Made by a program: the position numbers and the translations under genes
The notes under the pieces: generated by a model
The model's database searches: none
Told to the model about the DNA's origin: nothing
The model's input: the letters and a program-made list of their open reading frames with translations, nothing else
In this document: in pieces, positions 1,339-4,857 of the stretch
Layout of the letters: every line of letters begins with the position of its first letter
Numbering within the stretch: position 1 is the first letter of the stretch
Origin: Candidatus Culexmicrobium cathedralense
GTDB lineage: Archaea > Thermoproteota > Methanomethylicia > Culexarchaeales > Culexmicrobiaceae
Assembly (NCBI GenBank): GCA_025061115.1
Contig: JANZKC010000002.1
Location: 256,001 to 320,000 of the forward strand
DNA: 64,000 nt
Reading direction: 5' to 3'

Positions 1339-1362
1339 ATTCCCACCTAACAGCGCCGCGCA

Positions 1363-2574
1363 TTAGTTTGGGCCTTGATCACTAAAACATATTGCTGTGA
1401 TCTCTTTTAAGCTCTCAATGCTCTTTTCAAGCAGCCCATCAATATCCAATTTAGACTCTATCTCTAATACATCTTCAAGCTCAGCTCTTGTTACTGGTTT
1501 AGAAGGTCTAGCCCAGCAACCCTTAATTGGCGTGCAGCCAGAAGTAACTCTCATGCATGAAGCTTCGTAAGTTCCAATCCTTTTAGCTAGAGCTATGCTC
1601 TCATCCTTATCGAAACCTATTAGAGGCCTTAAAACAGGTAGCTCCGAAGCTTGATCTATAACTCTCAAGTTATCCAGAGTTTGAGAAGCCACTTGAGCTA
1701 AATTCTCACCAGTAACAATAGCTTTAGCACCAACTCTCTTAGCTAGCTCATTAGCAACTCTATACATCATCCTTCTACACAATACGCAAGTGTGCTTCAA
1801 AGCCGCTTTTCTAAAGGCAATTAAGTTATGCTCATGCCTGAAAACATAAACTGGCATTTCCTCTCCAACATGCCACTTCCTAAGTATTCTAACCACTTTA
1901 ATGAAGCGCCTCAAATCCGACTCATCACCTCCACGTGGAAAGTAAGCGAATAGAGGAATAACGCTGCATCCCCTCTTCATCATAAGCCATGAAGCAACTG
2001 GAGAATCTATGCCGCCAGAAATTAGGCATACAACCTTCCCCGCAGTTCCAAGAGGCAGTCCTCCTGGGCAAGGAACCCTCACATTATAAATATAGCACTC
2101 TTCATCTCTAACTTCAACATAAATTACCCTCTCAGGATTGTCCAAGCACACTTTAACTTTCGTTTCCTCCTTAACTATAGCTCCCAAGCGATTTTCCAAG
2201 TCTTTACTAGTAAATGAATGCGAGCCGGTCCTCCTAACCCTCACCGAAAATGATTTTGCATCTCCAATCAGCAAATGCGAAGCATCCCTAATGAACGCGC
2301 TTAAATCACTTAATTTAACAAACTTAAATGGCGCAGCAAAAACTAAGCCAAAAACTCGCTTGAGCAAATCTAGAGCCCCATTAACATCTTCAACTTCTAT
2401 GAGCAATCTAGACCACTTATGACGAACTCTACCTCTCAAGCCGATCTCCTTAAGCCCATCAATGATATTTTGAGCTAACTTCCTAACAAATCGCCTTCTC
2501 ACACTATTGGATTTTATAGCTATTTCACCATATGCAGCTAAAATTCCATCCCACTCAATGCTTGTTGACTGCAT
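1363..2574 (-). CDS. thiI: tRNA 4-thiouridine synthase ThiI (THUMP + PP-loop)
   Basis: YGEIAIKS, a THUMP domain, GGLPLGT, SGGIDSPVA, CxxCRR and GENLAQVASQTL. Confidence 0.93.
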   Translation of the reverse strand: MQSTSIEWDGILAAYGEIAIKSNSVRRRFVRKLAQNIIDGLKEIGLRGRVRHKWSRLLIEVEDVNGALDLLKRVFGLVFAAPFKFVKLSDLSAFIRDASHLLIGDAKSFSVRVRRTGSHSFTSKDLENRLGAIVKEETKVKVCLDNPERVIYVEVRDEECYIYNVRVPCPGGLPLGTAGKVVCLISGGIDSPVASWLMMKRGCSVIPLFAYFPRGGDESDLRRFIKVVRILRKWHVGEEMPVYVFRHEHNLIAFRKAALKHTCVLCRRMMYRVANELAKRVGAKAIVTGENLAQVASQTLDNLRVIDQASELPVLRPLIGFDKDESIALAKRIGTYEASCMRVTSGCTPIKGCWARPSKPVTRAELEDVLEIESKLDIDGLLEKSIESLKEITAICFSDQGPN

Positions 2575-2747
2575 TTCAATAAAGTTCAGAAAAACATGCT
2601 GATAAATCTCTCTATCTACAGCCTAAATTGCCGAAATCTCATAAATAAATCCAAATTGCAGCTGAAAGTTGAAGGGAATGATCCTACATGATCTTGAGCA
2701 GAATTTAAATGCAAGTAATTTAAGTTCGAGCATTAATATTGAATTAA

Positions 2748-2812
2748 TGGGCGATGATGCATCTTTAGCGGTTGCTGCCAATTGATGGCAGAACCCGGCA
2801 AGGCTGAGCCCA
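2748..2812 (+). ncRNA. C/D box guide sRNA, predicted to target 23S rRNA G1945 (E. coli numbering)
   Basis: Terminal stem TGGGC/GCCCA, box C ATGATGC, C'-like TTGATGG, box D CTGA (2804-2807), D guide ACCCGGCAAGG, and TTTAAG about 29 nt upstream. Confidence 0.75.
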
Positions 2813-2890
2813 AACCCCCGAAGCAAATAAATACCACACAAGCAAAAATACTAATGAAAGCCGGGGTAGCTCAGCCTGGGAGAGCGTCCG

Positions 2891-3527
2891 TGAAAACCCG
2901 TGCTAGGAGCCTTACCGCTCTCCACAATTTTTTATTAACTCAACAGTTTATGGAATTCTATGGTATAATGGTAGGTGATGGAACGCTCTACCATAAGCAT
3001 AATTGCAAATATTTTTTTCACAATATCCGAAGGATACAAAGATTATGCACAACATATTGCAGGGCTAGTGTATCTACTTATAGGCAGGTATCCACGGATC
3101 AAATATAGATCAAAGGCTTTTCAGAATAGAGTTTAAGTCAAAAAGACTCTTCAACGCATTCATAAATTTAGGCTTTCCTTTAGGCAAGAAAAGTTCCAAC
3201 ATTTCCATTCCCACAATAATTTTATCACATGATAATGTTAATTGGCTAATACGTGGAATATTTGATACTGACGGATCTATTTTCTTTAGTAAAAAGCCTG
3301 GCATAGTAAACTACCCTACCGTTGAAATTACTAGTAAAAGCTTTACCTTACTTAAACAGATCAAGAACGCTTTACGAGAAAAGTATGGCATTTTAGCGCA
3401 TATACGCAGATCCAAAGGTGTACATGAATTGGCAGTATATGGTTCGAAAGAAATAAGTAAGTGGGTAAAGTTTATAGGGAGCAGCCATAAAATTAAATCT
3501 CGGCTCCTAGCACGGGTTTTCGGCGAA
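2891..3527 (+). mobile_element. 637-nt BHB-type tRNA intron carrying a homing endonuclease gene
   Basis: BHB motif: central helix CGTC(2885-2888)/GGCG(3522-3525), bulges CG^T and AA^G, outer pairing AG/CT, and a 20-bp inner stem. Confidence 0.9.
2891..3527 (+). pseudogene. Two-motif LAGLIDADG homing endonuclease with two apparent +1 frameshifts
   Basis: Motif 1 FMEFYGIMVGDG (~2947-2982) and motif 2 LIRGIFDTDG (~3246-3275). The frame breaks at about the T7 run (3012-3018) and the T4 run (3118-3121). The last frame is stop-free from 3084 through the 3' splice site. Confidence 0.88.
2892..3521. repeat. Perfect 20-bp inverted repeat closing the intron (2892-2911 / 3502-3521)
   Basis: GAAAACCCGTGCTAGGAGCC is the exact reverse complement of GGCTCCTAGCACGGGTTTTC. 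Confidence 0.97.
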
Positions 3528-3551
3528 GCTGAAGACCGGATTGTCGAGGGT

Positions 3552-4622
3552 TCAAGTCCCTCCCCCGGCACTAAAATTATTAAGTAATTCCTTTACGAAC
3601 GAACCGAATTCCGTAACATCATATTCCCAATTTTTCAGCATGCTGGGATCCCATACTGGATGAAAAACCCAAGCAGTCCAACCAGCAACCCTATCCTCCA
3701 TGTAGGAGATTAAGGGCTCCCCAAAACAGCTTCTACTCCCCTTTAAAAACTCATAATCCACCTCTTCCTCATAACCCCACTCAGTTACAAAGACGGGATA
3801 ATGCTCAGCGACCCGCCCCCAATAATAATCCCATTCCTTCATAGGCCTACCAGGATAAACATGAACTGCATAAGCTATGTTTTCACCTGAAATGGGATCA
3901 CTTAAAACTCCTCTTAAATCGTAAGCCCAATCTACACCTCCGACAATTATTATAACATCCGCATCCTTACCCCTAATTAAACGGATAATCTCCTCGGCCA
4001 AAGGCTTCCAATCTTCCCACTCAATCCATGCTGGCTCATTAAAAATTTCATAAAGAACATTGCTCCTACCCCTAAATCGCTCTGCAACTCTACTCCAGAA
4101 ATTTACAGCTAAAGTGAAGTTTGGATCATAAATATTCTCCCCATTCCAAGGTTCCTCATACATCCAACTAAAGTTTTCAGGCGTTTCAGTCTCACCCGTA
4201 ATGGGATTTCCAATCGCATGCCAATCAATTATTACATAAATACCTCTCTCCTCACACCATTCAACCACCCTATCAAGGTACCTCTCAAGGTAATCGAAAT
4301 ACCTCTTCCAAAACACTGGGTGAACTGGCACTCTAACGACATTTACATTCCACATCTTAATCACATCGAAAAGCTCCTCACCAAACTTCCCCTCCCAATC
4401 TAGATAAGCTGGATCTGCTATCCCCACACCCCTCAAAATCACCTCCTTTCCACTAGCAAGAAGCTCATTTCCAACAATCTCCAATTTAGGCAAACCTTCA
4501 CGTTTAAACCTGAAAATGCAAAGCTGATTGAGAAAACAAATGCACAAGCCCATAATCAAGCAAGCAACAATGAAAACCCCAAATCTCGACGGCCAACCTC
4601 TAAAAGCCAGCGTTTTGACCAT
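3552..4622 (-). CDS. Secreted or membrane-anchored glycoside hydrolase family 5 (cellulase-like)
   Basis: IIDWH, YEIFNEP (acid/base Glu), AVHVY and VFVTEWG (nucleophile), with an N-terminal hydrophobic segment. ATG 4622 follows a GGAGGTG Shine-Dalgarno (SD). Confidence 0.88.
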   Translation of the reverse strand: MVKTLAFRGWPSRFGVFIVACLIMGLCICFLNQLCIFRFKREGLPKLEIVGNELLASGKEVILRGVGIADPAYLDWEGKFGEELFDVIKMWNVNVVRVPVHPVFWKRYFDYLERYLDRVVEWCEERGIYVIIDWHAIGNPITGETETPENFSWMYEEPWNGENIYDPNFTLAVNFWSRVAERFRGRSNVLYEIFNEPAWIEWEDWKPLAEEIIRLIRGKDADVIIIVGGVDWAYDLRGVLSDPISGENIAYAVHVYPGRPMKEWDYYWGRVAEHYPVFVTEWGYEEEVDYEFLKGSRSCFGEPLISYMEDRVAGWTAWVFHPVWDPSMLKNWEYDVTEFGSFVKELLNNFSAGGGT

Positions 4623-4857
4623 AACACCTCCACCCAACCCATACGAAAATTCACTAGTTAAATGTACTCCAGCATAATGCTAAATCAATAAACCCCAATC
4701 ACCTTCATTAAATTTAGCCGAAACTAACTTGCAGCCAACAGCCTTCACATAACTTCGCGATGCTCTGGTAACTGTTTCAATTTGAAGGCAAGTTAAATAC
4801 TCAAAACAAACTAAGTTGAAAAGCGCAAAATTTTATCCAGCCCACGCGAAATAGAGT

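Follow-up and report, generated by a model that had tools for sequence, protein, structure and literature searches.

Homing endonuclease genes carried by bulge-helix-bulge (BHB) introns were previously known in archaeal ribosomal RNA (rRNA) genes. In a stretch of 64,000 nucleotides from the archaeon Candidatus Culexmicrobium cathedralense (assembly GCA_025061115.1, contig JANZKC010000002.1, positions 256,001 to 320,000 of the forward strand; hereafter the window), an intron of this kind splits the transfer RNA (tRNA) gene for phenylalanine, and its open reading frame (ORF) is so tight that both start and stop codon are borrowed from the splice junctions. The question raised by this locus is which form of the RNA such a gene would be translated from, the unspliced precursor or the ligated intron circle. 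We describe the anatomy of the element, its natural alleles and its homologues, all of which bear on the answer; the comparison leans slightly towards the precursor.

The tRNA-Phe(GAA) gene occupies positions 2860-3570 of the window on the forward strand, and is split between tRNA positions 30 and 31 by a 637-nucleotide intron (2891-3527; Table 1). Default tRNA tools overlook the split gene, and the long-intron setting of ARAGORN was needed to recover it; with introns allowed, the program calls tRNA-Phe(gaa) with a 637-nucleotide intron at 2860-3571. This is the sole tRNA-Phe among the 46 tRNA calls of a genome rated 99.99% complete, and no second tRNA-Phe gene was found among those calls. When the end of exon 1 (...GCGUCCG) is joined to the start of exon 2 (GCUGAAGACCGGA), a 5-base pair anticodon stem and the loop CUGAAGA are restored. 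In three of four public runs, intron-less tRNA-Phe contigs from other organisms join position 2890 straight to 3528, and these contigs, together with the ARAGORN call, show that removal of the intron restores the host RNA. The element is an archaeal BHB intron of homing type in the only tRNA-Phe gene of its genome.

The splice sites read as an hBHBh' motif, in which two 3-nucleotide bulges on opposite strands (CG|U and AA|G) are separated by a 4-base pair helix (by direct reading C2885-G3525, G2886-C3524, U2887.G3523 and C2888-G3522, with one G.U pair) and the outer helix measures just 2 base pairs. On the intron side a perfect 20-base pair stem joins 2892-2911 to 3502-3521; this long stem is present in the minimum free energy fold (z = -4.2). 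A preliminary description of the stretch, made from its letters, had placed an endonuclease-bearing BHB intron here, and the BHB reading, ARAGORN and the PF14528 match bear out such an intron, hosted by a tRNA gene and carrying a LAGLIDADG ORF; the feature stands, and only its limits of 2890-3528 overshoot by a single base on either side, these two positions being the flanking exon G's.

The match to PF14528 (LAGLIDADG_3) covers window positions 3114-3527, with an E-value of 6.3e-10 and 39.6 bits against a cut-off of 22.5, and the last 138 intron codons correspond to the Pfam LAGLIDADG_3 region. The LAGLIDADG motif was identified twice, and both copies have an acidic residue: FYGIMVGDG (2956-2982) and LIRGIFDTDG (3246-3275). 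The coding sequence in the window is spread over three frames by two +1 shifts, which were placed by alignment with homologues, and is therefore interrupted twice. No stop interrupts its C-terminal frame up to the end of the intron, and this frame reaches the 3' splice site on a codon boundary (...RVFGE|, the bar marking the junction), and the ORF as a whole covers the entire intron with both stem arms, as had been proposed. A single-chain, two-motif LAGLIDADG gene thus occupies the intron from end to end, and the 20-base pair splice-site stem is coding too. Recoding of TGA was considered and ruled out, as TGA terminates 11 of the 33 long ORFs in the window.

Comparison with known systems was performed on an AlphaFold model of an intact homologue, the protein encoded by the 654-nucleotide intron of locus L007, which was obtained with a predicted local distance difference test score of 91 and a predicted template modeling score of 0.87. 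Residues 1-16 of the model, corresponding to the 5' arm and the linker that follows it, are disordered, and the 3' arm encodes most of the C-terminal helix. Foldseek returned I-Tsp061I (TMt 0.74, E 1e-10) and I-DmoI (2vs8, TMt 0.76) as the best full-length matches, as well as PI-PfuI and I-SceI, the four lying between E 1e-7 and 1e-10; a sequence-profile search of the PDB with five homologues found no match at E 0.01. The pseudo-dimeric alpha-beta-beta-alpha-beta-beta-alpha fold is predicted for the L007 homologue, the protein modelled in place of the window's broken gene. The element shares with I-DmoI, from the 23S rRNA intron of Desulfurococcus mobilis, the BHB intron, the single-chain two-motif LAGLIDADG organization and the predicted fold; it differs in that the host is a tRNA and not an rRNA, and in that the ORF fills the intron and carries no internal start or stop. 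I-Tsp061I (PDB 2dch), from an archaeal 16S rRNA intron, and the rRNA-intron LAGLIDADG genes of the same phylum represent the same intron type and encode proteins of about 200-220 amino acids.

We collected 16 such rRNA-intron endonuclease frames of at least 180 amino acids, with boundaries taken from BLAST breaks against the genome's own rRNA operon and uncertain by a few bases. Within these approximate boundaries, the first start codon lies 30-154 nucleotides inside the intron in 16/16, and the stop lies inside the intron in 12 and in the 3' exon, past the splice site, in four; none of the 16 is a whole-intron ORF. Judged from this comparison, spill past the 3' splice site is not unique to the tRNA-Phe element, whereas an intron ORF running from first to last base is. 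In two 16S rRNA introns (L032, and the second intron of L042 at approximately 1483-2142), whose boundaries are also BLAST breaks, the endonuclease frame has no internal stop and would acquire one two codons further on, either from the 3' exon (ACT TAA) or from the intron's own start (TCC TAA). Full-text searches, with supplements and subscription journals outside their reach, turned up no published description of an archaeal tRNA BHB intron that carries a LAGLIDADG gene, and the term 'homing endonuclease' occurs nowhere in the text of the tRNA-intron review PMC4090602. The element may thus fill a gap in the record.

Contigs of four public runs (X1-X4) were placed on window positions 2700-3700. 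X1 (word depth 76), from which the window probably derives, is an exact copy over this interval, with 0 other letters and 0 gaps; X2 (depth 81) and X4 (depth 23) have one letter fewer at 3012 and one fewer at 3118; X3 has one letter fewer at 3012 alone, and thus represents an intermediate haplotype that combines T6 with T4. The T runs occur in three haplotype states among the four runs, and the alleles also differ at three linked single-nucleotide polymorphisms (SNPs), all non-synonymous in our codon reading: G2981A, which changes GDG of motif 1 to GDE in X2, X3 and X4; G3396A (Ala to Thr); and G3426A (Glu to Lys, with Lys the state of the homologues). Because X1 is exact and the haplotypes of X2/X4 and X3 differ from it, the frameshifts are real, recent and polymorphic, and not assembly errors. 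Among the haplotypes observed, none is free both of frameshifts and of the motif 1 change from Gly to Glu, a pattern that resembles relaxed selection on a homing endonuclease already fixed; in this genome the endonuclease gene is a fresh pseudogene. Seven of the 11 homologous introns described below are broken too, and decay across them would fit the usual life cycle of homing endonucleases, with the three natural haplotype states catching that cycle under way. We note that in L004 and L011 an in-frame stop replaces the Gly of ...GIFDTDG (motif 2) within an otherwise open whole-intron frame of 666 nucleotides, a route of decay unlike the frameshifts of the window.

A protein search yielded 13 homologues from 31 candidates, eight of which (59-67% identity) share the end ...LLAR(V/A)(I/V)RRS. 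The full HMMER scan gave just two clusters at E 1e-30 or better, which indicates a small clade. DNA scans with a 5-sequence alignment located six genome loci, in metagenome-assembled genomes labelled Desulfurococcales or Thermoprotei, and seven metagenome loci. All 13 lie in tRNA-Phe at the same site, representing 11 distinct introns, and ARAGORN confirmed the tRNA for L003, L007, L009 and L010. The BHB layout recurs in all 13 loci (as CGCC/GGCG), and in seven much shorter introns considered below. Since the exon sequences differ between loci, the endonuclease was found in 0/40 related genomes and the 3' junction pattern in 0/61 other genomes of the window's class, the distribution suggests lateral spread by homing.

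The arithmetic of the splice junctions is where precursor and circle part company. Window-type intron termini read TGAA...UUCGGCGAA, and the circle junction is predicted as GGCGAA|UGAAAACC, as compared to GGCGAA|UGGAC in homologues. On a circle the window junction reads GAA|UGA, in which A|UG is in frame with KTRARSL...FYGIMVGDG. Removal of one T from each run gives an intron of 635 nucleotides (2 mod 3), which on a circle encodes 212 codons from A|UG to the overlapping UGA and aligns with the homologues except that its N-terminal linker and its C-terminus differ from theirs in length. The preliminary description had deduced both this frame-intact allele and its one-turn ORF, with start and stop supplied by the ATGA junction; the calculation is correct in silico, and the 635-nucleotide allele occurs naturally, in the contigs of X2 and X4. 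One-turn closure fails for the 637-nucleotide sequence of the window as it stands. Given the TG...A ends of the family, we estimate the chance of obtaining ATGA at approximately 0.1 (a length of 2 mod 3, about 1/3, multiplied by A at position 3, about 1/3), and ATGA closure by itself is thus not beyond chance.

The further expectation, that homologues keep the junction ATGA and a length of 2 mod 3, fails. Positions 1-3 of the intron are TGG in 10/11 homologues and AGG in the remaining one, neither being a stop codon, and the junction accordingly reads A|TGG in 10 and A|AGG in one. Intron length is 0 mod 3 in seven of the 11, 2 in three and 1 in one, and the first group includes all three fully intact introns, L007, L009 (648 nucleotides) and L010 (651), none of which has a stop on the circle. 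Homologues without a conserved junction ATGA were what the preliminary description had named as speaking against its proposal, and with a junction stop in 0/11 this is largely the case. On the precursor, by comparison, all 11 end in ...CGG CGA A|GC UGA (RR followed by A|GC TGA), so that the stop falls on U33-G34-A35 of the anticodon loop.

The stem accounts for the difference. Its distal 16 base pairs are fully paired (16/16) in 11 of the 12 distinct introns, window included, and pair 14 shows a two-sided compensatory change, being T-A in six and C-G in six. Beside the bulges, the homologues have GGAC opposite GAUCC, with one bulged base in the 3' arm, whereas the window has GAAA opposite UUUC and no bulge; intron base 3 is a U-paired A in the window versus G in the homologues. 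The missing base of the 3' arm therefore shifts the C-terminal frame, and the paired A at position 3 creates the UGA. The A|UGA closure is real in the sequence yet, by these comparisons, specific to one lineage, and in our judgement re-pairing of the stem during decay of the element is a likelier origin of AUGA than conservation as a means of expression.

ORF-less introns at the same site are informative in this respect. L022 (genome G295, locus positions 1470-1585, minus strand), from another family of the phylum, is a tRNA-Phe intron of 43 nucleotides at 30/31 that has the TGA start of the window, an unbulged stem and clearly related arm sequence, and is probably a remnant left after loss of the endonuclease gene. 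Introns of 21-41 nucleotides were found at 30/31 in six more of 400 sampled genomes, and their first two bases are AC, AC, TG, AG, AG and AG (TG in L022). These seven introns (L016-L022) resemble that of the window in site, in the GGCG helix strand and mostly in the AA|G bulge, and differ from it by their length of 21-43 nucleotides, the absence of an ORF and the variable first bases. Since TG...A termini occur in ORF-less L018 and L022, ends able to make AUGA arise without an ORF, and the site does not by itself confer a junction AUG. In addition, introns of 21-43 nucleotides occupy the same site, one with the same stem, and this small family shows how tRNA introns outside the canonical position can arise, spread by homing and then shrink.

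Where translation begins can be approached through the linker that joins the 5' arm to motif 1. It is in frame and stop-free in 9/11 homologues, despite a length that varies from about 10 to 23 codons and a varied sequence; for an unconstrained linker of the same composition the expectation would be approximately 0.05-0.16 per lineage, a figure that is indicative only, the lineages being related. The start of translation is thus probably at the 5' splice site or upstream of it. A G|UG start across this site is possible in 10/11 homologues. A leader ATG was also considered as the start for the whole family and ruled out: among 12 loci, window included and with two pairs nearly identical, an in-frame ATG or GTG lies at most 15 nucleotides upstream of the tRNA in six, and in the other six there is none.

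With about even confidence, and leaning slightly in its favor, we propose that the unspliced or nascent precursor is translated before the stem forms, and that the AUGA of the window is a by-product. This reading is favored because the ORFs of the family are endless on a circle and exactly closed on the precursor, and because the 20-base pair stem persists in the circle. Throughout the family, translation would start at G|UG across the 5' splice site of the unspliced precursor and stop at U33-G34-A35 in the Phe anticodon loop; it would be co-transcriptional, running ahead of synthesis of the 3' arm and hence of stem formation, and splicing and circularization would then switch expression off. 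Sequence alone does not settle the mechanism: the anatomy, homology, alleles and junction arithmetic are observed, and the identity of the translated RNA is what we infer from them. For the window type, G|UG and A|UG alike would give an N-terminal Met-Lys-Thr-Arg. The two RNA forms predict different C-termini, which would allow direct discrimination of the form translated in an archaeon: for the window type, ...RVFGE from the circle and ...RVFGEAEDRIVEGSSPSPGTKIIK from the precursor; for the homologues, ...RRS from the precursor and ...RR-M-D-(A/T)-R across the junction from the circle.

Several points weigh against translation of the precursor. On it, an intact window-type allele acquires a tail of 19 residues and depends on a 3' trailer 17 or more nucleotides long. 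The G|UG is situated at the base of the stem, preceded only by a weak GGAG, and the intact L009 lacks it (and A|UG as well), its frame being open back to an ATG 9 nucleotides upstream of the tRNA. Within the last 15 nucleotides of the intron, the 3' arm of five of the 11 homologues (L003, L004, L007, L010 and L011) carries GGUGAUC; this motif complements the 3' end of the 16S rRNA, read from the genome to which the window belongs (...GGAUCACCUCC), and is placed 6 nucleotides before A|UG, an AUG that only circularization would make. The chance figure of about 0.1 for the ATGA closure is also low enough to leave design in consideration. Lastly, the I-DmoI precedent would favor translation from the excised or circular intron: passages of PMC11724312 and PMC5387670 describe a stable circular intron RNA that encodes or yields this endonuclease of 194 amino acids, and stability and endonuclease production are ascribed to circular archaeal rRNA introns more generally in passages of PMC3326292 and PMC5387670.

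The best-surviving alternative, possible although we hold it only tentatively, is that of the preliminary description, in which the ligated circle would be the messenger, with an A|UG start and, in the window type, an overlapping UGA stop, so that the enzyme would be made only after splicing; in sister lineages the frame would be endless. Besides the stability of circular rRNA introns, it draws on the natural 635-nucleotide allele of exactly 212 codons plus stop, on the A|TG junction of the window and 10/11 homologues, on the in-frame N-terminal linker, and on the Shine-Dalgarno-like GGUGAUC ahead of the junction AUG, which is found in the intact L007 and L010. It has to contend with homologues of which none has a junction stop, the three fully intact ones never terminating; with the intact L009, whose junction reads A|AG; with the window lineage, in which the Shine-Dalgarno-like motif is lost (GGGUUUUC stands in its place); and with the ORF-less introns that have the same TG...A termini. 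The AUG would also sit at the end of the persisting 20-base pair stem, and all observed window-type haplotypes are frameshifted or carry Gly-to-Glu in motif 1.

A family-wide form of this proposal, which we consider unlikely though well worth stating, takes the circle as the messenger in every lineage: ligation would create A|UG, preceded in several lineages by GGUGAUC as a canonical ribosome-binding site 6 nucleotides upstream, and the window type would close after one turn while its sisters translate round and round. If true, an archaeon would here carry out rolling-circle translation, in which rare initiation on a structured RNA yields many endonuclease units, and endonuclease output would be strictly gated by tRNA splicing. 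Eukaryotic circular RNAs with infinite ORFs and the 220-nucleotide satellite of rice yellow mottle virus likewise have ORFs that use the closure point, with overlapping start and stop or no end, according to passages of PMC11724312. Those circles arise by backsplicing or rolling-circle replication, whereas closure here is predicted to occur by archaeal tRNA-splicing ligation.

Translation from an internal start past the 5' arm, such as the ATG before EFYGIM at 2950, perhaps on a separate transcript from an AT-rich promoter inside the intron, seems improbable. Neither junction would then matter, and the frame would end wherever the first stop falls, in exon 2, in the trailer or at the junction. 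L003 would fit, as its endonuclease frame is intact solely from an internal ATG and its linker is out of frame; gene callers picked internal starts for the homologue proteins P0002 and P0006, all 16 rRNA-intron frames begin inside their introns, and the first 16 residues of the L007 model are disordered. However, the Met is not conserved, P0003, P0004 and P0005 having none before motif 1, and 9/11 homologues keep an in-frame, stop-free linker through its changes in length, with the chance expectation given above.

Finally, that both frameshifts are assembly or sequencing errors in a truly intact gene is very improbable: both fall in homopolymer runs that are shorter in other samples, but the independent contig build of X1 equals the window at word depth 76, the intermediate X3 haplotype exists, and the alleles differ by linked SNPs.

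Table 1. Features of the split tRNA-Phe gene and of the endonuclease ORF (window coordinates)
Feature	Position	Strand	Description
ATG, 6 nucleotides upstream of the tRNA	2854..2856	+	In frame through exon 1 with segment 1; possible primary-transcript start; not conserved in homologues
tRNA-Phe(GAA) exon 1	2860..2890	+	tRNA positions 1-30 (our numbering; one extra D-loop base); ARAGORN and sequence reading
BHB 5' half	2885..2891	+	Helix strand CGUC (2885-2888), bulge CG|U (2889-2891); cleavage predicted after 2890
ORF segment 1	2890..3018	+	Start G|UG (precursor) or A3527|UG (circle), then KTRARSL...FYGIMVGDG...CKYFF; motif 1 at 2956-2982
BHB intron, 637 nucleotides, in the anticodon stem (30/31)	2891..3527	+	Sequence reading, ARAGORN, intron-less contigs
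5' arm of 20-base pair stem	2892..2911	+	Doubles as code for N-terminal KTRARSL
T7 run, one extra T, first +1 frameshift	3012..3018	+	...CKYFF|TISEG...; T6 in contigs of X2, X3 and X4
ORF segment 2, frame +1	3016..3121	+	FTISEGYKDYAQHIAGLVYLLIGRYPRIKYRSKAF
T4 run, one extra T, second +1 frameshift	3118..3121	+	...RSKAF|RIEFK...; T3 in X2 and X4, T4 in X3 and X1
ORF segment 3	3122..3527	+	RIEFKSK...LIRGIFDTDG...RLLARVFGE; stop-free, ends on codon boundary at 3' splice site; motif 2 at 3246-3275
3' arm of 20-base pair stem	3502..3521	+	Doubles as code for ...RLLARVF; lacks the bulged base of all 11 homologous introns
BHB 3' half	3522..3528	+	Helix strand GGCG (3522-3525), bulge AA|G (3526-3528); cleavage predicted after 3527
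tRNA-Phe exon 2	3528..3570	+	G31, loop CUGAAGA, T arm, acceptor 3' strand, discriminator A; ARAGORN and sequence reading
TAA, first in-frame stop for segment 3 on unspliced precursor	3585..3587	+	19 added residues; 15 nucleotides beyond tRNA 3' end

LAGLIDADG genes were also found beside tRNA genes. In L028 (G304) and L030 (G334), a free-standing LAGLIDADG ORF of about 216 amino acids with its own start and stop (1471-2121 on the plus strand in L030) lies between a degenerate tRNA-Phe 5' copy and a complete tRNA-Phe gene with a short intron at 30/31, which points to a second endonuclease lineage linked to tRNA-Phe, outside the intron. The layout of tRNA fragment, endonuclease and whole tRNA seen in L030 is also that of L044 (G191, 1341-2260, minus strand), where a tRNA 5' fragment and a tRNA-Leu-like gene flank a LAGLIDADG ORF of 226 amino acids that has an ATG and a TAA of its own.

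In genome G000 as a whole, 16 of the 46 tRNA genes are called with an intron when ARAGORN is set to allow them, and several of these introns lie away from the canonical 37/38 position. No other intron endonuclease was found in this genome; on contig C1 (492600-496100, minus strand), four LAGLIDADG_3 matches fall within one open frame of 2100 amino acids, and are probably inteins in a large protein. Next to the tRNA-Phe gene itself, a 361-amino acid ORF on the minus strand (window positions 3552-4637) overlaps with its 3' end the last 19 nucleotides of the tRNA gene on the opposite strand.

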